Shown: piece after piece, positions 1-35,666 of the stretch
Layout of the letters: every line of letters starts with the position of its first letter
Numbering within the stretch: position 1 is the first letter of the stretch
DNA from: an uncultured Gammaproteobacteria bacterium
Lineage (GTDB): Bacteria > Patescibacteriota > Patescibacteriia > Patescibacteriales > UBA12465
Length of the DNA: 64,000 bases
Direction: 5' to 3'
Assembly: GCA_964470695.1 (NCBI GenBank)
Contig: CAYYDR010000002.1
Span: forward strand, 200,401-264,400
Position numbers and translations under genes: made by a program
Notes under the pieces: generated by a model
Seen by the model: only the letters and a program-made list of their open reading frames with translations
What the model was told of the DNA's origin: nothing
Databases searched by the model: none

Positions 1-1
1 G

Positions 2-3000
2 GGAACTTATACCATTGATGCTTATGGCGCTTCGGGCGGACAGGGAACGAGTTATACGCAATATGCTTTTGGTAAGGGGGCGCGCATGAAGGGAGACTTC
101 TTTTTGTATGCTGGGGAGGTTATTAGAATTTTAGTTGGTCAGCAGGGTCCGAGCGGAACTCATGATGGCGGTGGAGGTGGTGGAACTTTTATAGTTAGAC
201 AGATGGGCTCAATCCCTATGGTTGTAGCGGGCGGCGGCGGCGGAGCGAGTTATAGTGGGGCTGGTGCTGATGCGGTTACTACGACTAGTGGTACAGCTGG
301 TCCGCAGGGCGGAACGGGCGGAACAGCGGGCGGCGGCGGAACATCGGCGGGGCATGCCGGTGCCGGGGCTGGTTTTACTACTAATGGTGGCAACGGTCCC
401 TCTAGTGGCAGTAGTTGTAATGGCGGCATTTCTTATATTAATGGCGGCAATGGTGGTTGCGCTGCTTCTACGGCGACGGGCGGTTTTGGTGGTGGCGGTG
501 GCACCCATGGATCAGGCTGGGGCGGCGGTGGTGGTGGTGGATATTCTGGTGGTGGCGCCTCTACTAGCAGTCAATATGGTGGCGGTGGTGGCGGTTCTTA
601 TAATGCTGGTACTAATCAGACTAATACCGCCGGCACTAGAACCGGACATGGCCAGGTTTTTATTACTTCGCCTGGTGGCGATGTTACCATAGTCTCTTAT
701 GGTGATGCTGCTAAGTTTACAGGCAATGTTTCTTTGATTGGCGGTATTAAGCTAGGTGATCCAGGGGCTGGTTGTAATTCTCAACTAGAGGGTGGTATAA
801 AATATTCTACTTCTACTAAATCTTTTTTAGGCTGTAACGGAGCAAATTGGTCCGGCTTTGTCAGCGGCAATACTACCCCTGATGCTTTTTCTTTTGTTAC
901 CCAGACTGGTTTAAATGCCGCAACGACTACCATATCTAATATAGTTCAGATTAATGGCATTATTTCTGTGGCCGCTTCGGCTAGCGGACCGGGTTCACCT
1001 CAGATTAGGGTTTGTACTGATGCTAGCTGCTCTAATGTTACTACTGATTGGACTACGGCCGCCTCAGTTTTAAACGGCCGGTATATACAGGCTAAACAGC
1101 TTAGCTCTAGCCAGAGTTTAGGCACCAATGCAGCTCTAATAGCAGTCGGTTCAAGTGTGGCTAGTTGGCAAGTGACAACCGCCAACACCACGCCAAATCC
1201 CTTTATTTTAACTGCGGCCGTACCCCAGACTTATAATAATAGTTCTACTGGTCAAACTGGTACTATCCAAACTTGGACAGTGCCTACTACTGGCACTTAT
1301 AGTATTGAAGCTTATGGCGCATCGGGCGGACAGGGAACGAGTTATACGCAATATGCTTTTGGTAAAGGGGCGCGTATGAAAGGTGATTTTGTTTTAACGG
1401 CTGGACATGTTATTAAAATTTTAGTCGGCCAGCAAGGACCTAGTGGTTCTAATGATGGTGGTGGTGGTGGTGGAACATATGTCGTTAATGAAACTACTGG
1501 GACATTGTTATTAGCAGCGGGTGGTGGTGGTGGTGCGAGTTATAGCGGCCCGGGCGCTGATGCAGTAACCGGCACCAGCGGTACAGATGGCGTGCAGGGT
1601 GGGGCGGGCGGCACAGGCGGTAACGGCGGCACCTCAATCGGTTGTGCGGGAGCGGGAGCCGGATATAATAGTAACGGTGGCAATGGCCCATCTTGTGGTA
1701 GTTGTGGCGGCGGCGTTCGTTACGCGGGCGGCGGAAACGGGGGTACTTGCGGTTATGCCACTACGGGCGGCTTCGGCGGCGGCGGCGGTACTCATGGCGG
1801 CGGCTGGGGCGGCGGCGGCGGTGGCGGATATTCGGGTGGTGGCGCCTCTACTAGTAGCCAATATGGCGGCGGCGGCGGCGGTTCTTATAATGGCGGAACT
1901 AATCAATCTAATACGGCTGGCAATAATACTGGTCATGGAAAAGTCATTGTCACTGGTTCTAGTGGCGCTTTGTATCCTTTAAATACTTTAGTAAGTTCAA
2001 ATGTAGCACAAGTTACTGGTTTGACTGTTAATTCGTTAGTATTTTTAGCCGGTAGTGGTACGCCTCAATATAGACTTTGTAGTAATTCGGATTGTTCTAG
2101 TGTGTCTAGAGATTGGGGAACCACAACAGCCCCTATTGCTAATAATACTTTTTTACAAGTAAAAGCTTATAGTCCTAGTGCTTCTAATTCTACGACGACG
2201 GCTTTAGTTAGTATTGGGACCTCTACCACCCCATTTAATATTAATACGGGAAGCGATTTTGTGAACGCTTTTACTATTGCTAATACTACTAATGCTTATT
2301 TAAATTCCATTGTTTCTTCCACTCCGGTTCAGATTACTGGCAATACTGTCCCGGCCGGTATAGTTGTTACGGGATCTGGCTCGCCAACAGTTAGAATTTG
2401 TACTGACGCTGCTTGTAATAATCTGGTTGGCAATAATACTTATAATAATACCTCTACCGGTTATACGGGCACCATTCAGACATGGACAGTTCCGGTTACA
2501 GGAACTTATATTATTGAAACTTGGGGAGCAGAAGGCGGTAAGGCGACCAGTTATACTTATAACGGCGGCAAAGGGGCGCGCATGAGAGGTGAATTTTCTT
2601 TAACGGCTGGCGAAGTAATTAAAATTTTAGTTGGCCAAAAGGGTGGCGCTTATTCTAATGAAGCGATGGGCGGCGGCGGAACTTTTGTGGTTAAACAGAA
2701 TGGTAATGTGCCTTTAATTATAGCGGGCGGCGGCGGGGGATCATCCGGAAATAATGCTACTTATAGTACTGGTATGGATGCTTCTATTACGACCAGCAGT
2801 ACCGCTAGTCAGAATAATACTTGCGCCGGTGTCGCTGGTCCAAATGGTGGCAGTGCTTGTTCAAATGCTGGTTCTGGAGCGGGATTCAGTGGTAATGGGC
2901 AAGCTGGCTCTGTAAGTAGAATAGCCTATGCTTATACTAATGGTGGTAACGGAGCTGACACCGGTGAAAATTATACTGGCTATGGCGCTGGTGCGAGCGG

Positions 3001-4258
3001 CGGTTTCGGCGGCGGCGGGGGTTCCCATGGTGGGGCTAGTTATGGCGGTGGCGGGGGCGGGGGTTATGCGGGAGGAAGCGCCTATACTAGTTATTATGGT
3101 GGCGGCGGCGGAGGCTCTTATAACGCTGGCACTAATCAGTCTAATAGCGCCGGCGTCCAGACCGGCCATGGAAAAGTTGTTATTACTATGCCGAATTTAG
3201 CTCTTTCTTCTGGTCAGTATATTCAAGTTTTAGTTAATGCTGCCAAGGCGGCTAGTACTCCGACTACGGCGACGGTTACAGTTGGCTCGGGCGCACCCGT
3301 TACTTATACAGTGACAACCGGGACTGGCTCAGCAACGGCTTTTAGTTTTACCGATCAGACTGGAGTTTTAAAAAATACGGTTATCTCTTCAAACATAATT
3401 CCTATAACTAGTACGACTATAGTTGGGGCCACAGTAAGCGGAGCGGGGTCTCCCCAGCTTAGGATTTGTAGTACCAGTGATTGTTCTGCAGTAGTAAAGG
3501 ATTGGAGTGCGGCGGCTGACATTTCTAGTGGTCAATATTTACAAGTTAGGATGACTAGCTCTTTATCTGATTTAACAGCCATTATTACTAATGTTTATGT
3601 TGGTGATAAATCATCAAATTGGAGCGTTACTACTTTAACGCAAATTAGTCCGACCGGATTATCTTTAACACATAGCGCTAATTATAAATATTTCACTATC
3701 AATTGGACGGCTGGTACTGGTAACGGCGGGGCGGGCAGTTGTAAATTGCAGTTTATGGATCAGAACGTTTCTGGTACTTGGAAAGATATTGCTGGCACTT
3801 CTTTAAATTGTGACACTAATGTGTCTGGCCAAACTATTTATTTGCCAGAAGATTTTACTAGTAGTTGGACCAGTACTCATCAAGTTAGAATATATGTAAA
3901 TAATATTGCTCAGTCTGGAGGTACTTTTCCGCAGACTATTTCCTGTACTTCCCAGGGTCCTTCTTATTATAATCCTAGCCCTAATATTGATGAAAATTGC
4001 AACGGTAAGTTTGATGATCAAATAGAGTGGTATCAAAATACTTATCAGTGCTCTGACCAGGGGAATATTTGTGCTCATATGTGGACTTCAAATAGTACTG
4101 AAAATTGTGGTACTCAAGAGGGCGATTGGGGCGGCGGTTGCTACAGTTCTCTTAACTGTTACTATTGGTATGCGGGCCACTCTTATGGCACCTTTGCCGA
4201 GAGCCCTAGTTATGCTAATAACTGTATCTGGGATGAGTGGGTTTATTATTATTACTAA
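2..4258 (+). CDS. Giant secreted/surface protein with at least 3 ALK/LTK-type glycine-rich domains (GRD, Pfam Gly_rich-like); 5' end cut by the window edge
   Basis: Frame 2 is open from base 2. Bases 2-85 encode GTYTIDAYGASGGQGTSYTQYAFGKGAR, the same module as at 1292-1375. There are three copies of TGTY.IE..GA.GG...GKGARM.G.F.L.AG..I.ILVGQ.G...GGGGGT(F/Y)VV...AGGGGG...GFGGGGG.HGG.WGGGGGGGYSGG...GHGKV.IT, interleaved with ~95-aa Cys-pair beta-type modules. The Cys-rich tail ends in YYYY. Confidence 0.8.
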   Translation, partial: GTYTIDAYGASGGQGTSYTQYAFGKGARMKGDFFLYAGEVIRILVGQQGPSGTHDGGGGGGTFIVRQMGSIPMVVAGGGGGASYSGAGADAVTTTSGTAGPQGGTGGTAGGGGTSAGHAGAGAGFTTNGGNGPSSGSSCNGGISYINGGNGGCAASTATGGFGGGGGTHGSGWGGGGGGGYSGGGASTSSQYGGGGGGSYNAGTNQTNTAGTRTGHGQVFITSPGGDVTIVSYGDAAKFTGNVSLIGGIKLGDPGAGCNSQLEGGIKYSTSTKSFLGCNGANWSGFVSGNTTPDAFSFVTQTGLNAATTTISNIVQINGIISVAASASGPGSPQIRVCTDASCSNVTTDWTTAASVLNGRYIQAKQLSSSQSLGTNAALIAVGSSVASWQVTTANTTPNPFILTAAVPQTYNNSSTGQTGTIQTWTVPTTGTYSIEAYGASGGQGTSYTQYAFGKGARMKGDFVLTAGHVIKILVGQQGPSGSNDGGGGGGTYVVNETTGTLLLAAGGGGGASYSGPGADAVTGTSGTDGVQGGAGGTGGNGGTSIGCAGAGAGYNSNGGNGPSCGSCGGGVRYAGGGNGGTCGYATTGGFGGGGGTHGGGWGGGGGGGYSGGGASTSSQYGGGGGGSYNGGTNQSNTAGNNTGHGKVIVTGSSGALYPLNTLVSSNVAQVTGLTVNSLVFLAGSGTPQYRLCSNSDCSSVSRDWGTTTAPIANNTFLQVKAYSPSASNSTTTALVSIGTSTTPFNINTGSDFVNAFTIANTTNAYLNSIVSSTPVQITGNTVPAGIVVTGSGSPTVRICTDAACNNLVGNNTYNNTSTGYTGTIQTWTVPVTGTYIIETWGAEGGKATSYTYNGGKGARMRGEFSLTAGEVIKILVGQKGGAYSNEAMGGGGTFVVKQNGNVPLIIAGGGGGSSGNNATYSTGMDASITTSSTASQNNTCAGVAGPNGGSACSNAGSGAGFSGNGQAGSVSRIAYAYTNGGNGADTGENYTGYGAGASGGFGGGGGSHGGASYGGGGGGGYAGGSAYTSYYGGGGGGSYNAGTNQSNSAGVQTGHGKVVITMPNLALSSGQYIQVLVNAAKAASTPTTATVTVGSGAPVTYTVTTGTGSATAFSFTDQTGVLKNTVISSNIIPITSTTIVGATVSGAGSPQLRICSTSDCSAVVKDWSAAADISSGQYLQVRMTSSLSDLTAIITNVYVGDKSSNWSVTTLTQISPTGLSLTHSANYKYFTINWTAGTGNGGAGSCKLQFMDQNVSGTWKDIAGTSLNCDTNVSGQTIYLPEDFTSSWTSTHQVRIYVNNIAQSGGTFPQTISCTSQGPSYYNPSPNIDENCNGKFDDQIEWYQNTYQCSDQGNICAHMWTSNSTENCGTQEGDWGGGCYSSLNCYYWYAGHSYGTFAESPSYANNCIWDEWVYYYY
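21..75 (+). repeat. Intragenic near-identical DNA repeat; partner at 1311-1365
   Basis: Bases 32-75 are identical to 1322-1365 (44 nt, tcgggcggacagggaacgagttatacgcaatatgcttttggtaa). This reflects recent duplication or gene conversion between GRD copies. Confidence 0.9.
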
Positions 4259-4263
4259 TTTCT

Positions 4264-4866
4264 ATGGTGAAACAGAAAATAATTTTATTAGTCTCAGCCC
4301 TTAGCTTATTATTAGTTGGTTTTATTTTGGCGCTCAGTCTCGGTAAAGGGGGTAATGATAGGGGTTTGGAGGCTTTAGAATTGGCCGCTAATCCGCCAGT
4401 TACCTATACTAAAACCCCCGTTGTTGAATCAACGGTTGAATTAGTGCCGCCCTATGTTCCCGAGAAAAACATAGAGCCGACTCCGCCACCTATTCCCGAA
4501 GGAGCCAAACTTAACAGCCGTTTTGTTCTGGCTCCGACTAAGCCAGCAGAATCAGTTACTGATCCTATTACTGGCCAGATGACTAAAATTATCAATATTA
4601 ATGTTAATGAAAATATATCGCCCGATAAGATTTATTTAAGTAAAGGCGATTTGGTTAGTTTAAAAATTAATAATCAGCAGTTATCTACTCTGACTTTGGT
4701 GAGTAATGATAAAACCAGAATGAGCGATATGGAAATAGCGCCTGGAGAATCTAAAACGGTTGTTTATGATACTCTAAAAACCAGTGATTTATTTTTGATT
4801 TGTCAGACTTGCGTTCCGCCTAAGCCTTTAAATATTAAAATTTTAGTCGGCGGCGCTCCGAAATAA
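4264..4866 (+). CDS. Small N-terminally membrane-anchored protein with a degenerate cupredoxin-like C-terminal domain (partner of GRD protein 1)
   Basis: The ATG at 4264 is 5 nt after the upstream stop; I prefer it over the ORF-track start 4237, which overlaps the GRD gene. Features are TM helix MVKQKIILLVSALSLLLVGFILAL, a Pro-rich linker, and a beta-rich C-terminus with a CQTCVPP motif. It is a paralog of 8893-9507. Confidence 0.7.
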   Translation: MVKQKIILLVSALSLLLVGFILALSLGKGGNDRGLEALELAANPPVTYTKTPVVESTVELVPPYVPEKNIEPTPPPIPEGAKLNSRFVLAPTKPAESVTDPITGQMTKIININVNENISPDKIYLSKGDLVSLKINNQQLSTLTLVSNDKTRMSDMEIAPGESKTVVYDTLKTSDLFLICQTCVPPKPLNIKILVGGAPK

Positions 4867-4872
4867 TTTTTT

Positions 4873-7800
4873 ATGTCTAAAAGATTTACCATCACTATCA
4901 TTTCCTGTCTCGCCTTTTTTGTTTTTGCTTATTATGTTGAGGCGGCCTCTTTTTATACTTGGTGGGGCAATGTCGGTATTGGTAAAATTCCGACTTCTAA
5001 CTTAGATATTATTGGCGGTAATAATTCCACGGGGGTTGTTAATGGGACCGCTCTTTGTATTGCTAGCGATTGTAAAGCTTCTTGGGCGGCTGTTTCTGGC
5101 GGCGGTTTATCGGTTGGCAGTTTGGGCCAGACTGTCAGACATAATGGAACCAGCTGGCTAGCTAGCTCTTTGCTTTTTAATACCGGCAGTAATATTGGTA
5201 TTAATACGACTAATCCCCAAGCCATTCTTGATGTATATGCGACTTCAACCCCGGGCGTTGTGCCAGGCCCTCCGGTTAGCACTACTTATAATAATAGTTC
5301 AACTGGGTATACGGGGACTATTTATACCTGGACCGTGCCGGCTACCGCGACTTATACCATTGATGCCTATGGCGCGCAGGCGGGGACGCCGACCAACTAT
5401 TCTAGTTATTACGGCGGATATGGCGCGCGCATGAAGGGCGATTTTGCTTTAACGGCTGGAGAAGTAATTAAAATTTTAGTCGGTCAGCAGGGCGGCACTT
5501 ATTCTGTAGAATCAATGGGCGGCGGCGGAACTTTTGTGGTTAAGCAGACTGGTAATGTTCCTTTAGTAGTCGCGGGCGGCGGCGGCGGATCAGCCGCTAG
5601 TGGCCGAGGATATGATGCCGTTACTACAACTAATGGTACTACTGATAGATCTGGCTCTTGCGCTGGTGGAACTGGCGGAGGCGGAGGGACGGCTTGCGGC
5701 AACGGTTCGGCTGGAGCTGGTTTTACTGGTAATGGTGGCGGCGGCGGTTGTGGGTTAGTTTCTTACTCTTATCTTAATGGCGGTAATGGTAGTAATACCG
5801 GTCAATCTTGTACTGGTTATGGTGCGGGCGCGAGCGGCGGTTTCGGCGGTGGCGGCGGTACTCATGGCGGCACTACTTGGGGCGGTGGTGGTGGCGGTGG
5901 ATATTCCGGTGGCGGTGGTGGCCAAGGTTCTTATGGCGGCGGCGGCGGCGGTTCTTATAACGCTGGGACTAACCAAACTAATACGGCCGGCGCTAATACC
6001 GGTCATGGAAAAGTTATTATTACGACCGCGGGCGCTGATGTCCCAGTTATAGTTTATGGTAAAGCAGCTACGGCGCTTGGAAATTTTAATGTGGCTGGAG
6101 GCGCCAAGATAGGAGAGCCTGGCGTTATTTGCAATTCACAGATAGAGGGCATGATTAAATACTCTTCGTCCACTAAAACTTTCATGGGTTGCGACGGTAC
6201 GTCTTGGTCGGGTTTAATTAGTGGCAATACTACTCCAGATAATTTTTCTTTTGCAACTCAGACTGGTTTAAACGTGGCCACGACCACTTTATCTAATATT
6301 GTTCAAATTAACGGCATAATTTCAGTAGCCGTTTCCACTAGCGGTTCTGGTTCACCGCAGTTTCGTACTTGCAGCAATTCCAGTTGTACGACTGTTATTT
6401 CCGATTGGGTTAGCGCTGGCTCTATTGCTAATGGTAAATATTTACAAGTTAGACAGTTGAGTTCTGACCAGAGTTTAGGAACGAACATAGCCTCTGTTGC
6501 CGTTGGAACTACTGTTGCTTCTTGGGCAATTACGACGGGTAATACAACCCCGAGCTCTTTTAGCTTTACTGTGCCGTCTCTGCAACCTTTAAATACAGTC
6601 GTTAATTCTAATATAGTTCAGATTAATGGTCTATCTATCCCTTCGTTAGTAGTTGTGGGTGGTAGTGGTAATCCTAATTTTAGGACTTGCAGTGATAGTA
6701 CTTGTTCGGCAATTTTAAGTGATTGGCGGGCGACTAGCACTACTATTAGTAATAGCAGTTATTTGCAGTTGCGGGCTTCTAGTCCCGCTACTCCTAATGC
6801 GACAACAACAGCTACCGTCAGTCTCGGAACTTCCACTGTCCCGTTTTATGTTCCTAGCGGCAGCGACTTTGTTAATCCTTTTTCTATTGCTAATACTACT
6901 AATGCTTATTTAAATGCTATTTCCTATTCAGTCCCGGTTCAAATTACTGGTAATACAGTACCCGCTGCGATAACAGTAACGGGCGGCGGTTCACCGCGGG
7001 CGAGAGCTTGTACTGATTCCGCTTGCGCGAATCCGATTGGCAATAATACTTATAACAATACCTCTACTGGTTATTATGGGTCTTATCAAAGTTGGACGGT
7101 CCCAACTACTGGAACTTATACTATTGAAGCTTGGGGGGCTGAGGGTGGGACGCCGACTAGTTATCCACAGTCTACCGGTGGCAAGGGGGCTCGCATGAGA
7201 GGAGATTTTACTTTAACGGCTGGTGAAGTTATTAGAATTTTAGTCGGCCAGCAAGGGAAGAGTGGTACTAATGATGGCGGTGGTGGAGGCGGAACATATG
7301 TTGCTAAGCAGACTGGCAATGTGCCTTTAATTGTTGCTGGCGGAGGCGGCGGCGGCGGGTATATGGCTCCTTATGGCGCTGGAATGGATGCGGTTACTGC
7401 AACTAACGGTACTAATGATAGGGCCGGTTCTTGTACGGGCGGCACTAATGGCAGTGGCGGGACTTGTTGTTCTAACGCCGCTTCAGGAGCTGGTTTTACT
7501 GGCAATGGTCAGGCTTGCTCTAACGCTTCTCACCTGCCTTATTCTTTTATCAGTGGTAATGGTTACGGTGGTGCAGGACAGTATGCTCCCTATATTGACG
7601 GCGGATTTGGCGGCGGCGGCGCGACTCATGGCGGCGGCTGGGGCGGAGCAGGCGGCGGCGGATATTCCGGTGGTGCTGGGTCTAGTGGTCAATATGGTGC
7701 CGGAGGCGGCGGTTCCTATAACTCTGGTTCTAATCAGAATAATTCTCCTGGAGTTCAGGTTGGTCATGGTAAAGTTATTATTACTATGCCTAACCCCGTT

Positions 7801-8865
7801 ATTACTTCTGGCCAATATCTTCAGGTTCTCGTTAATGCGGCAGCGACCGCTAGTACTCCGACAACAGCGACAGTTACGGTTGGCTCTTCAGCTGTTTCAG
7901 CTACTTATACTACGACTACTGGCACTGGTTCGGCGACGGCTTTCAGCTTTACAGACCAGACTAACGTCGCTAGGAGTGCTTTAATATTATCTAACATTGT
8001 CCAGATAACTAGTACGGCGATTGTCGGGGCCACTATTACTGGCTCTACAACGCCTCAGATTAGGGTCTGTGGCAATTCTAATTGTTCTAGTGTTGTGACC
8101 GATTGGACTAATGCGGCTAATATTTCTAGTGGCCAATATTTACAGGCCAGAATGAATAGCTCGGCCGTTAATTTAACGGCCGTGACGGCTAATATTGCCG
8201 TCGGTGATAAGACAGATGTTTGGAGTGTAACGACCAATCAAGTTGATCCGACTAATTTAGTTTTAACTCATACGGCTAATCGCAATACTTTTACTATTTC
8301 TTGGACGGCCGGTTTAAATAATGGCGGAGCAGGAGGATGCAAACTTCAGTTTATGGATCAAAACGTAACGGGGACCTGGAAGGATATAACCGGTGCGGCA
8401 GCCACTTTAAACTGCGATGCCGCTCTCTCTAGCCAGACCATTACTTTACCTGAGAGTTTTACTAGTAGTTGGTCGGGGACGCACCAAGTCAGAATTTTCG
8501 TAAATAATAGCGGCTTATCAGGCGGGACCTTCCCGACCGCCTTATCGTGTACTGTTACAGCCGGCTCCTATAATTCCGCTACGGCGACTATTGATGAAGA
8601 TTGTAATGGCGCCTTTGACAATACAGTTCTCTATGATTCTTATACTGAGAGTTGTAGTAATCAGAGTCTTATTTGTGTGGAAAATTATGCCTCTTATGGT
8701 GATCCTAATTGTGGCAATGTTAGCAGTTGGGGAGCATATTGCACCTCTTCTGTGCCTCCTTGTTATACCCCTTGGTATGATAATAATTCTATTGGTTACA
8801 GACAGTTATCAGAAAGCTGGGATAATGGCTGTATCTGGACGGAAAATATTTACTACTATTACTAA
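4873..8865 (+). CDS. Giant secreted protein with 2 ALK/LTK-type glycine-rich domains, paralog of 2-4258
   Basis: It has a signal-peptide-like N-terminus (FFVFAYYVEA/AS) and a fibre-like NVGIGK...NIGINTTNPQAILDV segment. GRD copies lie at ~5285-6020 and ~7045-7790. The C-terminal ~440 aa are collinear with gene 1, and the protein ends IYYYY. Confidence 0.85.
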   Translation: MSKRFTITIISCLAFFVFAYYVEAASFYTWWGNVGIGKIPTSNLDIIGGNNSTGVVNGTALCIASDCKASWAAVSGGGLSVGSLGQTVRHNGTSWLASSLLFNTGSNIGINTTNPQAILDVYATSTPGVVPGPPVSTTYNNSSTGYTGTIYTWTVPATATYTIDAYGAQAGTPTNYSSYYGGYGARMKGDFALTAGEVIKILVGQQGGTYSVESMGGGGTFVVKQTGNVPLVVAGGGGGSAASGRGYDAVTTTNGTTDRSGSCAGGTGGGGGTACGNGSAGAGFTGNGGGGGCGLVSYSYLNGGNGSNTGQSCTGYGAGASGGFGGGGGTHGGTTWGGGGGGGYSGGGGGQGSYGGGGGGSYNAGTNQTNTAGANTGHGKVIITTAGADVPVIVYGKAATALGNFNVAGGAKIGEPGVICNSQIEGMIKYSSSTKTFMGCDGTSWSGLISGNTTPDNFSFATQTGLNVATTTLSNIVQINGIISVAVSTSGSGSPQFRTCSNSSCTTVISDWVSAGSIANGKYLQVRQLSSDQSLGTNIASVAVGTTVASWAITTGNTTPSSFSFTVPSLQPLNTVVNSNIVQINGLSIPSLVVVGGSGNPNFRTCSDSTCSAILSDWRATSTTISNSSYLQLRASSPATPNATTTATVSLGTSTVPFYVPSGSDFVNPFSIANTTNAYLNAISYSVPVQITGNTVPAAITVTGGGSPRARACTDSACANPIGNNTYNNTSTGYYGSYQSWTVPTTGTYTIEAWGAEGGTPTSYPQSTGGKGARMRGDFTLTAGEVIRILVGQQGKSGTNDGGGGGGTYVAKQTGNVPLIVAGGGGGGGYMAPYGAGMDAVTATNGTNDRAGSCTGGTNGSGGTCCSNAASGAGFTGNGQACSNASHLPYSFISGNGYGGAGQYAPYIDGGFGGGGATHGGGWGGAGGGGYSGGAGSSGQYGAGGGGSYNSGSNQNNSPGVQVGHGKVIITMPNPVITSGQYLQVLVNAAATASTPTTATVTVGSSAVSATYTTTTGTGSATAFSFTDQTNVARSALILSNIVQITSTAIVGATITGSTTPQIRVCGNSNCSSVVTDWTNAANISSGQYLQARMNSSAVNLTAVTANIAVGDKTDVWSVTTNQVDPTNLVLTHTANRNTFTISWTAGLNNGGAGGCKLQFMDQNVTGTWKDITGAAATLNCDAALSSQTITLPESFTSSWSGTHQVRIFVNNSGLSGGTFPTALSCTVTAGSYNSATATIDEDCNGAFDNTVLYDSYTESCSNQSLICVENYASYGDPNCGNVSSWGAYCTSSVPPCYTPWYDNNSIGYRQLSESWDNGCIWTENIYYYY

Positions 8866-8892
8866 ACAAAAGATTTCAATAACTAGATTATT

Positions 8893-9507
8893 ATGTTTTT
8901 TCTGACAAAACAAAAAATATTATTTTTTTCATCCGGCTTAATTATTTTACTAATTGGTTTTTTTGGCGCCACTTATTTTAATAATAAATCGTTTAGTCAA
9001 ATAAACAACCAAATAAATAATCACCCGGCGGCAAATTCTTCCGCCCCCCTTCAATCCGCTTCCGACGTCGCGCTTGTTCCGCCTTATGTCCCCGAGCAAA
9101 AGACGGCTCCAGTCATTAACCCTGGTCTTAACTCGGTTTCCGCTACTCCGGCGACTGAGACAGTGACTGATGAAAAAACTGGCGAAGCTACTAAATTGAT
9201 TGATATTGTCATGAATGATAAAATTACTCCTAGCAAAATTTATCTTAATAAGAATGATAATGTTAAGTTAAATTTTATTAATCAGCAGTCTCAAGACGCG
9301 CTTCTAGTTAGTCTGAATAAAACTCGGTTAGATAATATTAAAATTGCCTCTGGAGCGGAAAAAGCCGTTTCTTATGATACGACTCTTTCTGGTGATTCAA
9401 CTTTAGTCTGTCAGACTTGCACCCCGCCTACGCCTTTATTTATTAGAGTGTTAGTCGGCCGGGCACCCAAAACATCGCCGAGTTCACCGTCCGAACCACT
9501 TAAATAA
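8893..9507 (+). CDS. Small membrane-anchored degenerate cupredoxin-like protein (partner of GRD protein 2)
   Basis: It has an N-terminal TM helix and a shared VPPYVPE linker. Its C-terminus aligns with 4264-4866 (KIYL.K.D.V.L..INQQ...CQTCTPP...VLVG.APK). Confidence 0.7.
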   Translation: MFFLTKQKILFFSSGLIILLIGFFGATYFNNKSFSQINNQINNHPAANSSAPLQSASDVALVPPYVPEQKTAPVINPGLNSVSATPATETVTDEKTGEATKLIDIVMNDKITPSKIYLNKNDNVKLNFINQQSQDALLVSLNKTRLDNIKIASGAEKAVSYDTTLSGDSTLVCQTCTPPTPLFIRVLVGRAPKTSPSSPSEPLK

Positions 9508-9550
9508 GCTGAACCACTTAAATAAAATTAATAATCTAATTTAGAATAAT

Positions 9551-10186
9551 ATGGATAATAAATACAAAATCATTCTTCTTTTCGTCGGCCTGGGCATTAT
9601 CACGGTGCTACTAATAATTTTATTCGCGCCTCAGAAAAAAACTTCTAACTATCAGGCTCAGTCTTATCCTAATGCTGATAATAGTCCGGCCGCGGTCGCC
9701 CCTAAAGTCCCCTTAGATATTGAGGCAATTGTGACCAGCGAGGATATGGATAACTCTAAAATAGAAGCGCCAGGGGCTAATCCGATTACCCCAAGCAATC
9801 AGGTTGTTACTGTAGAAGGGAAGAAGACTTTAAATGATGTTTCTCCGACTTCGCCGCAAGCCCCTTCCCAGACCGCGCCGCTTAAGTTGGAAAATTTGTC
9901 ACCTAACGCCGTAAAAATTGCCATTGGTAATGGCGGATTTAGCCCGGTTGTTTTTAGCGTTAATGCCGGCTCGCCAGTGACTATGGCTTTAACTGCAGTT
10001 GATTCTTATGCCCATAGTTTGGTTTTTGATAGCCCGTCCTTATCGGCGGTCGGCGTCGGGGTTTATTCTGGAGAAACTCGCGCTATTACTTTTAACGCTC
10101 CGGAGCAGAAAGGCGAATATAATTTCCGCTGCAATGTCGGCGGACATGCCGGACGAGGTGAAATCGGCAAGATGGTAGTTAAATAA
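9551..10186 (+). CDS. Membrane-anchored cupredoxin-like protein (Cupredoxin_1-like) retaining candidate Cu ligands
   Basis: It has an N-terminal TM helix. The C-terminus reads FSPVVFSVNAGSPVTMALTAVDSYAHSLVFD...GEYNFRCNVGGHAGRGEIGKMVVK, a His...Cys...His...Met arrangement. Confidence 0.7.
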   Translation: MDNKYKIILLFVGLGIITVLLIILFAPQKKTSNYQAQSYPNADNSPAAVAPKVPLDIEAIVTSEDMDNSKIEAPGANPITPSNQVVTVEGKKTLNDVSPTSPQAPSQTAPLKLENLSPNAVKIAIGNGGFSPVVFSVNAGSPVTMALTAVDSYAHSLVFDSPSLSAVGVGVYSGETRAITFNAPEQKGEYNFRCNVGGHAGRGEIGKMVVK

Positions 10187-10235
10187 AATAGTCGTAAAAT
10201 AAATAGCAGTAAAATAATTCGGGCGCTAATTTTTT

Positions 10236-13200
10236 ATGGTTGATATTTTGTTAATTGTTTCCACTTTAATATTGGTTTATCTCTCAGCTTATGCCTTAAT
10301 CTTTCTCGGCTTAAGCTTTTTTGCTTTTTGGCCTAAGTCGCGCGCCTTAGCTTTTAAGACTGAAAAGATTCAGCTGGTTAATCGCGGGCCAATAGCGGTT
10401 TTAATTCCTTCTCATAATGAAGGCGAGGGATTAATTGACGCCATAGAAACTGTTTTGCGGCAGGACTACCCAGGCCTAGTAGAAATTTACATATTACTTA
10501 ATGATCAAAAAAATAATGAGGCGGAAATAAAAGCTTTAACCAAATTTTATGAATTTGATGCTTCAAGCGTATTTAATAAAAATAACCGACGCATCCATTT
10601 AATTTTAAGTAACTTCCAGGCCAAAAAAGATAAAATAAATTTTATCTTAAATAAATTAGACCAACCCTTTACCGCCATTTTAGATGCTGATCATCGCCCT
10701 ATCTCTAACTGGCTCAGTTCTTCGGTTGCACTTTTTCCTGGTTATTCAAATAACGCTAATATTTCAGAAATTATTGCCGTCCAAACTCGTCGTCGCCCTT
10801 TAGCTGTTACTCACTTAGCACAAATATGGGACTCCGCCCAGAATCATTTAGGCAATGAATTATTTAATAATTTTTTAAGCCGCCTCGGCGTGCGGCGCGG
10901 TGGTAAAGTTTTTTTTACTGGTACGGCCGCTCTTTTTAAAACCGCTATCCTTAAAAAATATCCGCTCTCAGATTCAGTAACCGAGGACACTTATCTTTCC
11001 TATACTCTATGGTGCGCCGGTTATCAGATTATTTATAATAGCCACTCCGCCTCTTACGAGGAGGTTTCACCTTCTTTCCGTGACTATGTTATGCGCCGCC
11101 GCCGCTGGAGTGCCGGCCATAGCCGAACTTTTTTTAAGCATCTGATAAAAATATTAAAATCGCCGCTCCCTCTGTTAGATAAAATAATATTATTAGGCCA
11201 TGGCCAATTTTATTTAATTCCTTTAGCCGTCTGGTTGCTCTTGAGTGTTTATGGCTATTATTTTTTTAGGCAGCTCGGCACTAATTTCCAATTCGCCGTC
11301 GCTCTAGCGGCTTTTTTTATCGCCGGTCTTCTAGCTTATGCTTTTAGGCAAAAAAATCGCCGTCTCTATGGTGATTGGCTAGTCGCTTGGCTATGGCTAT
11401 TGCCTCAACTGGCTATTGTCTCAGTTTATGTTTATAAATTTATCGGTGCCGAAAATTATTATTATATTTTGATTTTTCCTTATGCTAAGGACTGGCTAAT
11501 CTGGCACTCCGTCCTTATCGGTTTGCCGCTAGTAGCTTTCTTGGCTAGTTTTTATTTTTTTAAAGATTCCCGCCAGTTAAAAAGTTTGTGGCTAATCCCG
11601 ACTTATCTGATTACGATGGCCCTAGATATTTACGCTTCTTTACTGGGCTTTTGGGATATGCTTTGGGGTCGGTCTTATTGGTCGCGCATAACGCGGCGTA
11701 ATGCCTACTCCCGAAATTTAGTTTCGTCTGATTTAAGTGCCAGTCTCGTGACTGGCCAGGCGGCGCCTCGTTCTCGCCGTTTGCCTTATGTTTTAGCCGT
11801 AGCCGGCTTAATTACCGTGGTTGTTTTGAATGATTTATTGGCGGTAAATAACTGCGGGGAAATTAAGAAATTTTTATGGCCGCCTTTATTTTTAAAGCCT
11901 CAATCAGCCGTTAACCTTAAAATCAGCGAAGATAAAAAAATTGCTGCTCCAGAAAACTTGCGTCTTAGTATTTATGCGGCCTTGACCGGCGGCGATGGTC
12001 ATTTTAATTTAACTTATTATATTGATGATAAATTTATCGGCCAGAAAGAGTTAAAGGGGGCATTGCCTTTAGAACCGATTAAGATTATTGATACCGAGTA
12101 TCCTTTGGGCTGGCAAAAGCATAAATTAGAGGTGCGATTGCAGGGCCAGGGAGCGGACCTGCAGACCACTTGCAATCGGCGGACCGCCTTTTCTACGGTC
12201 TTAAAAGAATTACGCGGTTCGGATTTATATATTAATGGCGAAAAATTTTTGGTTAAAGGCTTAATCCCATCTTTTATGAACGGCCAAATTGATTTAGAAC
12301 TCGCTGATGGATTTAAGCAGTTCCAGGCGATAGGCATTAATACTATCCGCTTGTATCATCGGGCCAATTCCGCTCTTTTGAGAGCGGCCGGAGAGAATGG
12401 CTTGTTAGTTATTGATCAGCCTGACCGTTCCACTTGGGACGAATTAGATCTTACTAGTGATCGCCAAGTAAACAGTTATTTAGAGCGTTATCAGGAAATG
12501 GTGACGAGTCATATCGGCGAACCATACCTCCTCTGGGACGGCTTAGGCAATGAATGGGAATTAGGCGGCCAGACCAATATGGCTCAGCTAGTTAATTTAA
12601 GTGATGAGATTATGGCTAGAGCCGCTAAGGAGATTTATAATTGGCCCAGCTCTTATTCTACTTATTTTACTTTTATTAATTACCCGGTTGATATTAGAGG
12701 TATTAATATGCTTGATACCGGCCTGACTTATTGGAACCGGGGAATTAAAATTATCAAAAGTTTGTCTAAGCCGTATTATGCTAGTGAGTTCGGCGGTTTT
12801 GTCGCTTTTTGGGAGAAGACCGTTCCTGAGCTTCGTTTAAAGCGTTTAGCCGATGAATGGAATATCTTATTGAATAACGGCGCCCTAGGAGCTAATTTTT
12901 ATGAATCACATGACAATTGGGCGCAGTCTGTGGTGGTTGGCTATAACGATCCTTTTAAAGCCGACCAGCCTGATGATACCCGTGGTTTTTGGGATCATGA
13001 TAATAAGCCTAAGCCAGAGCTTAGGGTCTTAAAAAAATTATTAGCTGATTTAGAGGTTAATTCCGCCTCTGATACCATTAACCCTCAGGCCGACCAAATA
13101 AATTTAACAGTCAAAAATATCCGCCCCTATAATTTGCGGCAAGTAATTTTATCAGCCGTGGGGAAAGATTATGAGGTTGGCGACTTGCAGCCGGGTGAAG

Positions 13201-13970
13201 AAAAAAACCTCGTGATTGATAATTTAGTATTGGGAGAGGGAAATAGTATATCAGGAGTAGAAAACCATATTTTAACTTTAAATTTCCGTTATAATTCCCA
13301 CGCCGGGCTAGCCGGCGCCACCGAAGTTGATTTGCCCTTGCCGTTTCTAAGTAAAGAGCCTCGGATATTAAATGACGACTTCCAGGTAGAGTCAATTAGC
13401 GAAAACAAATTAACTGGGCGTTTACGTAGCTCCAGCGCGGTGGATTTAGTTTTGCCAGATAGCTGGCTAAATTTTAGTCTAAACGGCCAGGCTTACGCGA
13501 AAACAAAAACAAGATTAGAATTACCCCTCGCTAACCCTTACCAAGCCGTATCTGATCTAGAAATTTCTCGGGACGGGGAGGCCTGGTCCAAACTGGATGC
13601 TGATGATAAATTAGGTGCTGGCCAATATTATATCCGTTTCCGCTGGCCGGCCCTTAAAGCTAAAACTCAACATTTAATTTTAGCTGGGCTAGGCACTGGC
13701 CAGATTGAAATATTGTGGCGCGGGCAGTCTAAACGCCTGGCGGCGCATAATTATCGTGAGAATATAATTAGCGCCCTTGATTTACAGAATCCCCGGTCGG
13801 GCGAATTAATTACCATCGTCTTTAATCGCAATCAGACCGCTTATGTTAATAAAGATATGGTGCGCCGTGATTTCCGAGCTGAGGCTATTTTAAGTGAAAA
13901 TACCGATGTCCAGTTTGAGCGGCCACGGCTTTTTGCTCCGGTGGATATTATTTTGGAGAAAATAAATTAG
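10236..13970 (+). CDS. Fusion protein: multi-TM processive family-2 glycosyltransferase plus a C-terminal extracytoplasmic clan GH-A-like glycoside hydrolase region
   Basis: GT2 motifs are VLIPSHNE, ILDADH (DxD), VTEDTYLS (TED) and RRRRWSAGH (QxxRW type), followed by about 6 TM helices. The hydrolase part has INGEKFLVKGL...IGINTIRLYH, GLGNEWELGG (acid/base NE) and YYASEFGG (nucleophile E). Confidence 0.75.
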   Translation: MVDILLIVSTLILVYLSAYALIFLGLSFFAFWPKSRALAFKTEKIQLVNRGPIAVLIPSHNEGEGLIDAIETVLRQDYPGLVEIYILLNDQKNNEAEIKALTKFYEFDASSVFNKNNRRIHLILSNFQAKKDKINFILNKLDQPFTAILDADHRPISNWLSSSVALFPGYSNNANISEIIAVQTRRRPLAVTHLAQIWDSAQNHLGNELFNNFLSRLGVRRGGKVFFTGTAALFKTAILKKYPLSDSVTEDTYLSYTLWCAGYQIIYNSHSASYEEVSPSFRDYVMRRRRWSAGHSRTFFKHLIKILKSPLPLLDKIILLGHGQFYLIPLAVWLLLSVYGYYFFRQLGTNFQFAVALAAFFIAGLLAYAFRQKNRRLYGDWLVAWLWLLPQLAIVSVYVYKFIGAENYYYILIFPYAKDWLIWHSVLIGLPLVAFLASFYFFKDSRQLKSLWLIPTYLITMALDIYASLLGFWDMLWGRSYWSRITRRNAYSRNLVSSDLSASLVTGQAAPRSRRLPYVLAVAGLITVVVLNDLLAVNNCGEIKKFLWPPLFLKPQSAVNLKISEDKKIAAPENLRLSIYAALTGGDGHFNLTYYIDDKFIGQKELKGALPLEPIKIIDTEYPLGWQKHKLEVRLQGQGADLQTTCNRRTAFSTVLKELRGSDLYINGEKFLVKGLIPSFMNGQIDLELADGFKQFQAIGINTIRLYHRANSALLRAAGENGLLVIDQPDRSTWDELDLTSDRQVNSYLERYQEMVTSHIGEPYLLWDGLGNEWELGGQTNMAQLVNLSDEIMARAAKEIYNWPSSYSTYFTFINYPVDIRGINMLDTGLTYWNRGIKIIKSLSKPYYASEFGGFVAFWEKTVPELRLKRLADEWNILLNNGALGANFYESHDNWAQSVVVGYNDPFKADQPDDTRGFWDHDNKPKPELRVLKKLLADLEVNSASDTINPQADQINLTVKNIRPYNLRQVILSAVGKDYEVGDLQPGEEKNLVIDNLVLGEGNSISGVENHILTLNFRYNSHAGLAGATEVDLPLPFLSKEPRILNDDFQVESISENKLTGRLRSSSAVDLVLPDSWLNFSLNGQAYAKTKTRLELPLANPYQAVSDLEISRDGEAWSKLDADDKLGAGQYYIRFRWPALKAKTQHLILAGLGTGQIEILWRGQSKRLAAHNYRENIISALDLQNPRSGELITIVFNRNQTAYVNKDMVRRDFRAEAILSENTDVQFERPRLFAPVDIILEKIN

Positions 13971-13983
13971 CGGATTTATTTTC

Positions 13984-14012
13984 TTGACCCTCGTCTTAGT
14001 AATTGCTATAAT
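13984..14012 (+). promoter_or_regulatory. Sigma70-type promoter
   Basis: TTGACC 13984-13989, 17-nt spacer, TATAAT 14007-14012. It lies upstream of 14043. Confidence 0.55.
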
Positions 14013-14042
14013 ATAAGAAGTTTTTATTAACTTATTTATTTT

Positions 14043-14249
14043 ATGAAAAAATCATTTATCGGCCCCTTATTGACCGTGATTGCCTTGGCCCTGGTCTTGG
14101 CAATGTTTATCTATTTTTATGTCTCTCTGAATCGGATGGAAAAGAGACTGACGACAGTTCAGACTTCTTTAGTAGAAGATTCTGGCAAGATTACCGCTAT
14201 CGTTAATTTCTTTAACGCTAATGCCAATGCCCAGAATACTCAAAAGTAA
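14043..14249 (+). CDS. Small membrane-anchored protein (68 aa)
   Basis: It has an N-terminal TM helix and a tail that aligns with the next gene (IVNFFNANA versus IVTFINNAT). Confidence 0.6.
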   Translation: MKKSFIGPLLTVIALALVLAMFIYFYVSLNRMEKRLTTVQTSLVEDSGKITAIVNFFNANANAQNTQK

Positions 14250-14316
14250 TTTAATAAATAATATAACTAGTCCGGCCGGATCATTAACTCCGCGCCGTGA
14301 CCTAAGTAATAATACT

Positions 14317-14547
14317 ATGAAAAGAGAATTTGTTTTCCCTCTAGTGGTTGGCCTTATCTTAGGCGCTTTAGTAATGATTTTTTGGCAGTTCAATGCCCGT
14401 TTAGCTAACGTCGCCGCCGGCGTCGTCCAGTTAGAACAGGCCACTAGCCAGAACACTAAGACCGTTGGTGACATTGTTACCTTTATTAACAATGCGACTG
14501 GCCAGAAAGCCCCGGCTGCTCCAGCGGCGGAAGCTCCTAAGCAGTAA
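14317..14547 (+). CDS. Small membrane-anchored protein, tandem paralog of 14043-14249
   Basis: I prefer the internal ATG 14317 (MKREFVFPLVVGLILGALV...) because the ORF-track start 14221 overlaps the previous gene. Confidence 0.55.
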   Translation: MKREFVFPLVVGLILGALVMIFWQFNARLANVAAGVVQLEQATSQNTKTVGDIVTFINNATGQKAPAAPAAEAPKQ

Positions 14548-14571
14548 TCTTAGAAATCATAAAATTCTGAG

Positions 14572-14607
14572 CCCTGCCTCTGCTTAAGAGGCAGGGTTTT
14601 TGTTTTT
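14572..14607 (+). terminator. Intrinsic terminator
   Basis: CCCTGCCTC-tgcttaa-GAGGCAGGG followed by TTTTTGTTTTT. Confidence 0.85.
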
Positions 14608-14612
14608 GCTAT

Positions 14613-14641
14613 TTGACGCGCTAGCTTCTTTGGGCTAAAAT
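14613..14641 (+). promoter_or_regulatory. Sigma70-type promoter of hutU, followed by the palindrome ATCACT-ct-AGTGAT (14647-14660) at about +1
   Basis: TTGACG 14613-14618, 17-nt spacer, TAAAAT 14636-14641. The 6-2-6 inverted repeat lies immediately downstream. Confidence 0.5.
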
Positions 14642-14733
14642 AATTAATCACTCTAGTGATAAAGTATTAACAGATTTGCCCTTTAAAATAAGAAAATAAA
14701 CAGTCATTCATTAACTAAGTGAGGAACACGGTC

Positions 14734-16743: not shown

Positions 16744-16777
16744 AAAGTAGCTAATTTATGGACAGGAGAAATATAAA

Positions 16778-17419
16778 ATGAAAACGCTACTCTTGTTGTC
16801 TAGTAGTAAATTTCTTAACAACGATCTGACTGATTATTTGGGTCGACCCTTAAGCTCTCTGCGAATCGCTCATATCATTGATGCCTCAAAGGGCGAGAAG
16901 GACCCTATTAATTTACCTTGTTTAGGTAGAGCGAGAGGTATATTCCGACAGAATGGTTGTTATTTTGAAGATTTATATCTAGAAGGGAAAAAGGAAACTG
17001 AGCTCCGTAGTATCTTAAAAAGTTTTGACGCCGTCTTTGTTAACGGCGGCAGTACTTTTTATCTATTGCGGGCTGTTCTCGCCAGCGGGTTTGCCGAGGT
17101 TGTTAAAGAGTTATTGCCTCAAGGTCTAATTTATATTGGATCCAGCGCCGGTGCTTATGTAGCTTGCCCCACTATTGAAATGACTCTGTGGATAGATCCG
17201 CATAAGTATGATTATTGCGGGTTAACTGATTTTAAGGCGATGAATTTAGTGCCGTTCTTGGTAACTACTCACTATACCGCCAAGCAGAGAGATATTCTTA
17301 GAGCTAATACCGCTGCCGCTAACTATCCGGTTAAGATTCTTAGTAATAAACAGGCCATCTTAGTAAAAGACGACTATATTCAAATCCTGGGCGGAAAAGA
17401 AATAAAATTGTTTAAATAA
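16778..17419 (+). CDS. Peptidase S51 family (dipeptidase E-like)
   Basis: FVNGGSTFYLLRAV...IYIGSSAGAYVACP (nucleophile Ser motif). An SD sequence AGGAG lies upstream. Confidence 0.75.
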   Translation: MKTLLLLSSSKFLNNDLTDYLGRPLSSLRIAHIIDASKGEKDPINLPCLGRARGIFRQNGCYFEDLYLEGKKETELRSILKSFDAVFVNGGSTFYLLRAVLASGFAEVVKELLPQGLIYIGSSAGAYVACPTIEMTLWIDPHKYDYCGLTDFKAMNLVPFLVTTHYTAKQRDILRANTAAANYPVKILSNKQAILVKDDYIQILGGKEIKLFK

Positions 17420-17447
17420 TTTATAATTTGTTAACCATTTAAAAGCC

Positions 17448-17477
17448 AGCCGCACGACTAGTTCTGCGGCTTTTTTA
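17448..17477 (+). terminator. Intrinsic terminator
   Basis: AGCCGCA-10 nt loop-TGCGGCT followed by T6. Confidence 0.8.
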
Positions 17478-17502
17478 TTATTTTTTGATAGGCGGCAACC
17501 AA

Positions 17503-17531
17503 TTGACAATTTTACCTAATTTTGGTAAATT
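17503..17531 (+). promoter_or_regulatory. Sigma70-type promoter (extended -10) of hisS-hutH
   Basis: TTGACA 17503-17508, 17-nt spacer, TGgTAAATT ending at 17531. Confidence 0.55.
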
Positions 17532-17646
17532 ATCCTGAAGGTCTTTTGATTTAAATACTAAAGATTCTAAGCCCTTTAACATCAAAATAGCAAACACACT
17601 AAGCAAATAAAAAATAAAGTCAATCACAAACAAGACCGGAGGTCTT

Positions 17647-32653: not shown

Positions 32654-32666
32654 GAATAAAAAATTG

Positions 32667-32755
32667 GGAGAGTTCGCATAGTTGGTCTAGTGCGCACGCC
32701 TGGAAAGTGTGTATACCGCAAGGTATCGAGGGTTCGAATCCCTCACTCTCCGCCA
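32667..32755 (+). tRNA. tRNA-Ser (anticodon GGA at 32702-32704), CCA encoded
   Basis: Acceptor GGAGAGT/ACTCTCC, anticodon arm CACGC-CTGGAAA-GTGTG, long variable arm ATACC-gcaa-GGTAT, and T arm GAGGG-TTCGAAT-CCCTC. The gene ends GCCA. Confidence 0.9.
32735..32753 (+). repeat. 19-bp direct repeat (att, tRNA-proximal copy) cgaatccctcactctccgc
   Basis: Identical to 48928-48946. Confidence 0.9.
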
Positions 32756-32783
32756 AGACAATTTAGTATCGGATAGACCCACG

Positions 32784-35660: not shown

Positions 35661-35666
35661 AAATTT

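Follow-up and report, generated by a model that had tools for sequence, protein, structure and literature searches.

What are the two very long, glycine-rich genes that open this stretch of Patescibacterial DNA, and why is each followed almost at once by a short gene for a membrane-anchored protein? The stretch, hereafter the window, comprises 64,000 nt of contig CAYYDR010000002.1 (assembly GCA_964470695.1, positions 200,401 to 264,400). A sequence-only reading of its first 10,186 positions had described two paralogous giant genes with five shared modules, small transmembrane (TM) proteins encoded downstream after gaps of 5 and 27 nt, and an exact 44-nt repeat, and these observations were all confirmed. 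Positions 1-10186 are the 3' portion of a close-packed same-strand array in the genome of a member of the Patescibacteria (candidate phyla radiation, CPR). We consider it very probable that this array encodes secreted, fibre-like proteins with multiple glycine-rich domains (GRDs) together with degenerate cupredoxin partners. Positions 1-14000 hold six genes, all on the + strand, with gaps of 5-49 nt between them:

2 to 4258, + strand: giant 1, open at the window start; the 1418 C-terminal aa of the 1577-aa protein P0002, with three GRDs.
4264 to 4866, + strand: wA, 200 aa (P0122); its ATG is at 4264, 5 nt past the giant-1 stop.
4873 to 8865, + strand: giant 2, 1330 aa (P0001), beginning 6 nt past the wA stop.
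8893 to 9507, + strand: wB, 204 aa (P0121), after a 27-nt gap from giant 2.
9551 to 10186, + strand: wC, a cupredoxin, predicted to be a TM-anchored type-1 (blue) copper protein.
10236 to 13970, + strand: a family-2 glycosyltransferase (GT2), 1244 aa, the next gene in the array after wC.

All reading frames in the cassette are intact. Co-transcription of the array is plausible; terminator-like sites in it were no commoner than in shuffled sequence. The N-terminus of giant 1 lies outside the window; as seen in P0002, it includes a Sec-type signal peptide as well as a region with 'GNVGIG...NP' motifs, which is tail-fibre-like and resembles that of giant 2. The domain order of giant 2 is signal peptide, fibre-like N-terminal region, GRD-D, linker, the beta-modules M1, M2, M3 (with GRD-E nested inside it) and M4, and finally a tail. 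Glycine makes up 17-21% of the giants, and its codons explain the elevated G+C content and G-skew over the first kilobases of the window. The giant sequences encoded in the window contain 28-31 cysteines, mostly in conserved pairs (a C-x4-C pair per beta-module, and the Cys-rich tail).

The sequence-only reading had assigned the five modules to the ALK/LTK GRD family on the basis of their motifs, and this assignment was borne out by Pfam scores, profile searches and a structural model. With PF12810 (ALK_LTK_GRD, gathering cut-off 24.5 bits) giant 2 scored 40.5 bits and giant 1 28.6 bits; the stretches reported by Pfam as matched cover both copies in giant 2 but only one of the three in giant 1. 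A profile built from all five copies matched ALK (E 1.4e-18), LTK (2.4e-13) and C. elegans SCD-2 (5.5e-4). Within this profile, positions 6-72, which are N-terminal and poor in glycine, matched ALK residues 41-106 with 40.4 bits and a bias of 0.1, and therefore the homology to ALK is not merely a matter of composition. An AlphaFold2 (AF2) model of giant-2 residues 664-1130, based on 32 aligned sequences, had pLDDT values of 90-98 across the GRD, with a long stretch free of DSSP-assigned structure between the flanking beta-strands. When the GRD model was searched against the PDB with Foldseek, ranks 1-21 were all TG domains of ALK or LTK (E 9e-13 to 9e-8), and the first match outside these, the cyanophage Pam3 fibre, was weak (E 0.03). 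The modules are thus genuine ALK/LTK-type GRDs, whose fold is predicted to be a tumour necrosis factor (TNF)-like beta-sandwich with a polyglycine-II lattice.

Giant 1 has three GRD copies and giant 2 has two, each of about 245 aa. The five share the motifs quoted by the sequence-only reading and are 61-64% identical at the amino acid level and 60-83% identical at the DNA level. Between the GRDs, each giant has four beta-modules of about 105 aa with a C-x4-C pair in each, and both giants end in a lineage-specific, Cys/aromatic-rich tail of about 205-235 aa. The parts of the giants are as follows:

2 to 667, + strand: GRD-A, truncated by the window start (about 21 residues missing); 298 bits against the GRD profile.
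869 to 1183, + strand: giant 1 M1, about 105 aa, with a C-x4-C pair and no known family.
1229 to 1963, + strand: GRD-B, nested in the first loop of M2 (halves 1184-1228 and 1964-2251).
2438 to 3190, + strand: GRD-C, nested in M3 after the C-x4-C hairpin (halves 2252-2437 and 3191-3325); Pfam PF12810 match at giant-1 residues 833-1049.
3326 to 3640, + strand: giant 1 M4, a beta-module, from the alignment.
3641 to 4255, + strand: giant 1 tail, with a conserved 'CKLQFMDQNVSGTWKDI' beta region, an 'IDENCNG.FDD' motif and a Cys/Trp/Tyr-rich end finishing in YYYY.
5284 to 6027, + strand: GRD-D of giant 2, from the alignment of the five copies.
6226 to 6861, + strand: giant 2 M1 (6226-6540) and M2 (6541-6861), both uninterrupted.
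7048 to 7788, + strand: GRD-E, nested in M3 (halves 6862-7047 and 7789-7926); the modelled copy, pLDDT 90-98.
7927 to 8238, + strand: giant 2 M4, a beta-module, from the alignment.
8239 to 8862, + strand: giant 2 tail, ending in IWTENIYYYY.
32 to 75 and 1322 to 1365, + strand: the exact 44-nt repeat shared by GRD-A and GRD-B, the longest in the region.

One GRD in each giant follows the tail-fibre-like N-terminal region, and the others sit inside loops of beta-modules. When the flanks of GRD-C and of GRD-E were joined, they aligned over their whole length with an uninterrupted module, and therefore GRD-C and GRD-E were inserted just after the C-x4-C hairpin of M3. The halves flanking GRD-B rebuilt a full M2 in the alignment, and M2 of giant 2 carries no GRD at that place. 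Judging from these alignments, giant 1 is essentially giant 2 with one extra inserted GRD, GRD-B, which is the copy that shares the 44-nt identity with GRD-A. Searches of Pfam, NCBIfam and PDB sequences returned nothing significant for the Cys-pair modules, the linker, the N-terminal region or the tail.

The 44-nt repeat had been taken as a sign of gene conversion or modular shuffling, and the local excess of DNA identity that we measured fits a short conversion tract. GRD-A and GRD-B are 73% identical overall at the DNA level and 92-95% identical over their first approximately 90 nt, and a 44-nt run was reached in only 3 of 20,000 codon-column shuffles. A fair reading is that the identity may mark a short conversion tract, or else a recent duplication whose copies have since diverged outside this stretch. 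The five GRDs vary mostly at alignment columns approximately 106-195, where pairwise identity is 28-55%, as compared with 61-85% in the sandwich or beta-core and the main glycine strands. This pattern fits a rigid scaffold presenting variable loops.

The expectation that several GRDs in one chain would be unusual did not hold. A homologue search with the giant returned 965 proteins, and of the 119 best homologues 92 had at least two full-length GRDs, with a maximum of six in one protein; the query used for this ranking held two GRDs, which favours multi-copy proteins, but multi-GRD chains are still clearly common. The homologues span the Verrucomicrobiota, Planctomycetota, Bacteroidota (with sorting domains of the type IX secretion system, T9SS), Firmicutes (Chengkuizengella), Marinimicrobia and other Patescibacteria, and also include coral and protist proteins; those that have a name are called 'glycine-rich protein'. 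Viral contigs encoding GRDs were found as well, and 68 viral models in BFVD matched the GRD model at E values up to 1e-3, including virion structural proteins of Synechococcus phages. Many of the GRD-fold phage and giant-virus proteins in the BFVD/viral loci (L072-L084) have been automatically named 'receptor protein-tyrosine kinase' or 'PE-PGRS family protein', names which look like annotation artefacts derived from the ALK name or from glycine richness. Our literature search found no functional study of bacterial ALK-type GRD proteins and one paper on a phage fibre.

The small proteins encoded after the giants, wA and wB, are type-II membrane proteins in which a Pro-rich stalk connects the N-terminal TM helix to a domain of cupredoxin fold. 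The stalk of wA contains LVPPYVPE and its domain ends in CQTCVPP; in wB the TM helix is at residues 15-27 (in the model), the cupredoxin-fold domain is at residues 81-190 and the corresponding motif is CQTCTPP. The two are 42-52% identical, depending on the region compared. Their scores with Cupredoxin_1 (PF13473), 22.8 and 21.9 bits, are below the cut-off of 27. However, in the AF2 model of wB the TM helix was followed by a disordered Pro-rich stalk and then by a beta-sandwich modelled with confidence (pLDDT approximately 90), and Foldseek matched the domain to the Cupredoxin_1 protein 4hcf (E 7.2e-7; target-normalised template modelling score, TMt, 0.75) and to FtrB (TMt 0.82). Further PDB matches of the model were nitrosocyanin, the membrane-anchored Cu(I) chaperone CupA and CuA domains. 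With hhalign, the profiles of the wA/wB and wC families aligned over a region extending from the TM helix as far as the ligand Cys (probability 91%, E 1.1e-6).

In that alignment the first Cys of CQTC is in register with the copper-ligand Cys of the wC family. The sequence-only reading had held that the small proteins lack the His/Cys/His/Met set of a type-1 copper site. This was right as regards both His and the Met, as the upstream His is replaced by Asp or is variable and the His/Met loop has become QTC(T/V)PP, but the ligand Cys has been kept and is the only one of the set to remain. Residues C173, C176 and P179, which form a C-x-x-C-x-P loop, are invariant in six family sequences. The Pfam scan, the alignment and the models together agree with the earlier description of TM-anchored, cupredoxin-like proteins that have no type-1 copper site: wA and wB are predicted to have a cupredoxin fold without the blue-copper site and to be remote relatives of wC. 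They appear to be diverged duplicates of the adjacent TM-anchored blue-copper protein, with wC as the likely parent.

As for wC itself, its Cupredoxin_1 score (35.1 bits against the cut-off of 27) and its ligand set, H155, C194, H199 and M208, invariant in wC and five relatives, identify it from sequence as a type-1 (blue) copper protein. For single-domain cupredoxins of the CPR, a role as electron carriers to NirK has been discussed (PMC5581439, PMC12931201). Among GTDB species representatives the wC family was found almost only in Patescibacteria metagenome-assembled genomes (MAGs), the best match to wC being from Falkowbacteria (56%) and others from Paceibacterota, Jorgensenbacteria, Doudnabacteria, Colwellbacteria and Saccharibacteria. 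Based on this near confinement the host was placed as a Patescibacterium, so that the episymbiont suggested by the sequence-only reading was a reasonable guess.

The pairing of GRD giants with cupredoxin-like proteins, also proposed from the sequence, recurs in other genomes but is not general. In an exhaustive HMMER search with the wA/wB profile, only five proteins were found among 1.84 billion representatives, wA and wB included, and a sixth member was found in a 90%-cluster database. Wherever the genomic context of a family member is available, the gene just before it encodes a giant with the tail seen in the window. Loci L004-L007 have the order giant, P0124, wC orthologue, GT2, and in loci L008-L011 a giant and P0126 precede the N-terminal part of a further giant. 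When metagenomes were scanned with the tail profile, only two loci were recovered, both among the tail/partner loci already known, and a word-indexed homologue search with wB returned wB alone. The CxxC (wA/wB) family had no match among GTDB species representatives, where the window genome and its close relatives are absent.

The closest other GRD giants, P0004, P0005 and P0008 (the first two with four GRDs), have a different C-terminal module and no wA/wB-type partner, and the same is true of the GRD giant P0084 with its different C-terminus. The loci of P0004, P0005 and P0008 have instead wC-type cupredoxins with intact ligands, a stand-alone TM Peptidase_S74 protein and fibre-like proteins. 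No cupredoxin is on record within 8 kb of a Parcubacteria GRD giant, and the viral GRD loci have no cupredoxin-like neighbours. General synteny of wC-type cupredoxins with GRDs was rejected on the finding that none of 56 wC-type loci from GTDB species representatives had a GRD within 10 kb. As GRD giants with other tails lack the partner and these loci lack GRDs, the partner tracks the tail and not the GRD. Among the same wC-type loci, 16 of 56 have open reading frames (ORFs) sharing the fibre-like N-terminal motif of the giants, and a gene of at least 800 aa lies immediately upstream of the wC-type gene in 10 of 42 loci, as compared with 29 of 368 other genes in those loci. The pairing can thus be described, from gene order, as a lineage-specific elaboration of a looser Patescibacterial habit of having TM cupredoxins near giant surface genes. 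It is real, very narrow (a tiny clade) and, as the sequence-only reading had suspected, undescribed as far as our literature searches reach.

What might the pairs do? In the mechanism that we propose, the giants would be secreted and displayed as adhesin or fibre-like molecules, and a ligand on another cell would be bound by variable loops presented on their rigid glycine lattice, in the manner of phage fibre tips and ALK. The cupredoxin-like partner, no longer an electron carrier, would be tethered in the membrane and would serve the giant whose gene immediately precedes its own, as a cognate dock or assembly factor for the tail of that giant. The signal peptides of the giants support surface export in the adhesin analogy, and the dock or assembly idea is based on the strict co-occurrence of tail and partner, the presence of one diverged partner per giant and the lost redox site. 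We infer surface display, ligand binding and a physical or functional link between partner and giant from these features. This functional proposal, with the GRDs as binding modules and wA and wB as cognate docks or assembly factors, is tentative; taking the identity of the array and the adhesin/dock mechanism together, we lean slightly towards it as the best overall explanation. It is rather doubtful that, more specifically, a copper-stripped cupredoxin was recruited one-to-one in this role, with its CxxC loop recognising or processing the Cys/aromatic-rich tail of its cognate giant. If true, this would represent a new way to attach or mature surface fibres in cell-wall-poor episymbiotic Patescibacteria and the first role assigned to a bacterial ALK-type GRD protein. 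The host-attachment molecules of Patescibacteria are largely unknown beyond type IV pili (PMC11623550), and giant GRD proteins are plausible candidates.

Several points weigh against the proposal. The adhesin or host-interaction role is argued by analogy only, and contact between partner and giant is deduced from sequence context. The beta-modules and tail match no known family, and the module flanks in the AF2 model were of low confidence. A passive dock would less typically have an invariant CxxC than a redox or metal site would, and the pairing could have arisen incidentally when a block of giant plus cupredoxin was duplicated. In the four available pairs, tails and partners have not clearly diverged in step; for example, the tail of giant 1 is closest to that of the L008 giant, and their partners are 32% identical. 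Finally, the adjacency is conserved across approximately three or four independent lineages, all of them close relatives, and is for this reason weak evidence of function.

The alternative that survives best, which we regard as unlikely, is that the partners are autonomous metal or redox proteins (Cu(I)-binding or with a thiol-active CxxC, similar to CupA) that came to lie beside the giants by block duplication and have no link to them. Both cysteines of the CxxC are invariant in the six members, the first being homologous to the copper-thiolate ligand, and the wB model resembles CupA (4f2e, TMt 0.80) and CuA domains; however, neither His nor the Met of the ancestral site has been retained. 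An apparently genuine blue-copper paralogue, wC, adjoins and there is a P1B-type CPC ATPase within the window, but no metal-related genes are adjacent and the ATPase is 26 kb away. While the four tail/partner pairs lend no mirror-tree support to the pairing, autonomous proteins would not be expected only directly after giants with one particular tail, nor as two diverged copies (42-52% identical) kept one per giant in place of a single shared one.

We consider it less likely still that the partners are dedicated extracytoplasmic foldases, that is, membrane-tethered CxxC thiol-disulfide oxidoreductases or chaperones acting on the giant as it leaves the Sec channel, either to join its numerous Cys pairs or to assist folding of its glycine lattice, comparable to phage tail-fibre chaperones, whose genes adjoin those of their fibres. 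The 28-31 cysteines of the giants, mostly in conserved pairs, and the invariant CxxC of the partner would suit such a role, but GRD giants of other lineages with equally many Cys pairs manage without a partner, and the genome already has two DsbA-like proteins, which argues against the need for a private oxidase. No thiol oxidoreductase with a cupredoxin fold is known to us. Related loci do have a fibre-like gene followed by one for a stand-alone TM protein with the Peptidase_S74 chaperone domain; the partner, however, has no sequence similarity to tail-fibre assembly proteins. It is because the CxxC is invariant that both the metal/redox and the foldase explanations stay alive beside the dock or assembly proposal.

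A phage origin of the cassette, as prophage or tailocin tail fibres with accessory proteins, is very improbable. Phage virion and fibre proteins often have the GRD fold, but the viral-contig scan that found GRDs gave no cupredoxin-like neighbour. The N-termini of the giants have tail-fibre-like 'GNVGIGTTNP' motifs, which are common to other CPR giants, and are preceded by Sec signal peptides, while the partners have TM anchors, neither of which favours a phage product. Related loci hold Peptidase_S74, RhuM and Bro-N genes; here, the cassette has the glycosyltransferase, the hut genes, HisRS and LigA as neighbours, and no genes for phage structure or packaging are found in the vicinity. Since the window contains HisRS, LigA, GatA, hut genes and tRNAs, we conclude that the DNA is cellular.

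The assembly itself was checked against independent contigs. A Logan contig (L012) is identical to window positions 6886-17755 (100%) and an ENA contig matches 8151-11343 at 99.97%, and the 3' part is therefore no assembly artefact; the 5' 6.9 kb of the window is covered by the window's own contig alone. The same gene order was found in L004, from a different species with 72% DNA identity. That the repeats or the tandem cassette are artefactual (a collapse or chimera) is extremely unlikely. L012 does end at the edge of a repeated module, but identity between the GRD copies is no higher than 60-83%, no exact repeat exceeds 44 nt, the two independent assemblies match at 99.97-100%, L004 has the same gene order, L008 also has a giant-partner-giant series and all reading frames are intact. 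Collapse of the repeats, the artefact raised by the sequence-only reading, was rejected on the first three of these grounds. L012 is a short-read contig and its end, at window position 6886, is near the start of the M3/GRD-E repeat; GRD cassettes evidently fragment short-read assemblies, and such genes are then probably under-counted in metagenomes.

Several other features of the window and the related loci are of note. The GT2 at 10236-13970 has an N-terminal cellulose-synthase-like GT2 domain (residues approximately 50-380), several TM segments and a C-terminal extension of approximately 700 aa with no Pfam match. It lies directly after wC in the window and in L004, an order that is absent from more distant loci. 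In most wC-type loci (L014-L069, L001 and L003), wC is followed by a gene of approximately 510-600 aa, conserved in size and with no Pfam match, in place of the 1244-aa GT2 of the window and L004. A stand-alone membrane-anchored protein of 151-152 aa, consisting of little beyond a Peptidase_S74 domain, is encoded in L001 (14989-15447), L003 (15044-15502) and L085 (8440-8895). In L001 and L003 it lies between a 647-660-aa fibre-like gene with 'GNVGIGTTNP' repeats and the wC-type cupredoxin, and in L085 the wC-type gene comes after it. Peptidase_S74 is the intramolecular chaperone domain of tail spikes, and this protein may be a trans-acting version of that normally intramolecular chaperone.

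Further downstream, the P1B-type heavy-metal ATPase (36604-38535) has CPC at residue 289, HP at residue 372 and an N-terminal CCDSC, and near it are two DsbA-like proteins (31880-32653 and 35667-36599, the latter with CYEC) and a class-V aminotransferase (34449-35660). Positions 31880-38535 have the lowest G+C of the window (33-35%). Two large serine recombinases (minus strand), a fusion of ParB with an N6/N4 DNA methylase, a helix-turn-helix protein, a LexA/S24-like repressor and a 1261-aa ORF with no Pfam match are located at 38558-47415 and 59605-60984, a gene set which suggests an integrated mobile element. At 14719-20749, hutU (urocanase) and hutH (histidine ammonia-lyase) flank the histidyl-tRNA synthetase gene. 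Patescibacteria are usually described as metabolically minimal, and a histidine-degradation pair contrasts with this.

How does the locus compare with known systems? The TG domain of ALK and LTK (PF12810; 7LRZ, 7N00, 7NWZ, 7NX0 and 7LIR) is homologous to the window GRDs, with 25-29% identity and the same order of motifs (W.VP..G.Y.I..GA.GG, ILVGQ.G and then poly-Gly strands). Unlike it, the window GRDs are bacterial, occur two or three per chain with some of them nested, and have loops that differ between copies, and the giants lack the kinase, EGF-like, MAM and LDLa context. The bacterial PF12810 'glycine-rich proteins' are members of this family as well: Bacteroidota T9SS cargo with CHU_C or Por_Secre_tail, cadherin-like proteins of Verrucomicrobiota, and those of Chengkuizengella, Planctomycetota and other Patescibacteria. 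Like the window giants, these are large and secreted, and two to six GRDs per chain are the norm. The window giants have no T9SS or cadherin modules but add lineage-specific Cys-pair modules, the Cys/aromatic tail and a dedicated downstream partner.

The phage fibre tips, Pam3 gp24 with its chaperone gp25 (7YPX) and gp38 of Salmonella phage S16 (6F45), also combine a TNF-like sandwich with a glycine lattice and variable distal receptor loops. Assembly of the Pam3 fibre needs the phage-encoded accessory protein gp25 (PMC9608196). These tips, however, are trimeric, have one lattice and use soluble chaperones unrelated to cupredoxins. The partner is not of the Tfa/gp25 chaperone type, as its fold matches cupredoxins, and there is no Peptidase_S74 in the window region. 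With the Cupredoxin_1 proteins (B. anthracis 4HCF, Brucella FtrB 8VUK, S. pneumoniae CupA 4F2E and CuA domains), wA and wB share the fold (TMt 0.75-0.82), and with the wC-type blue-copper and CupA-like proteins they have an N-terminal membrane anchor in common. They differ from the Cupredoxin_1 and wC families in their sub-cut-off scores, the loss of both His and the Met and their occurrence only after giant genes; their C-x-x-C-x-P loop was not seen in the Cupredoxin_1, CupA or wC-type families.

Bacterial ALK-type GRD proteins are abundant, with hundreds of matches in many phyla as well as in phages, and both the domain and its use in multiple copies are already common in bacteria. The locus is a compact example, with several variable-loop GRDs on one chain, two of them inserted in other domains. 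It is the giant/partner pairing, confined to a small lineage, of which our literature searches returned no description; the dedicated partner gene could provide an experimental handle on export, anchoring or folding, and the partner itself would illustrate how a redox fold can be repurposed after the loss of its metal site.

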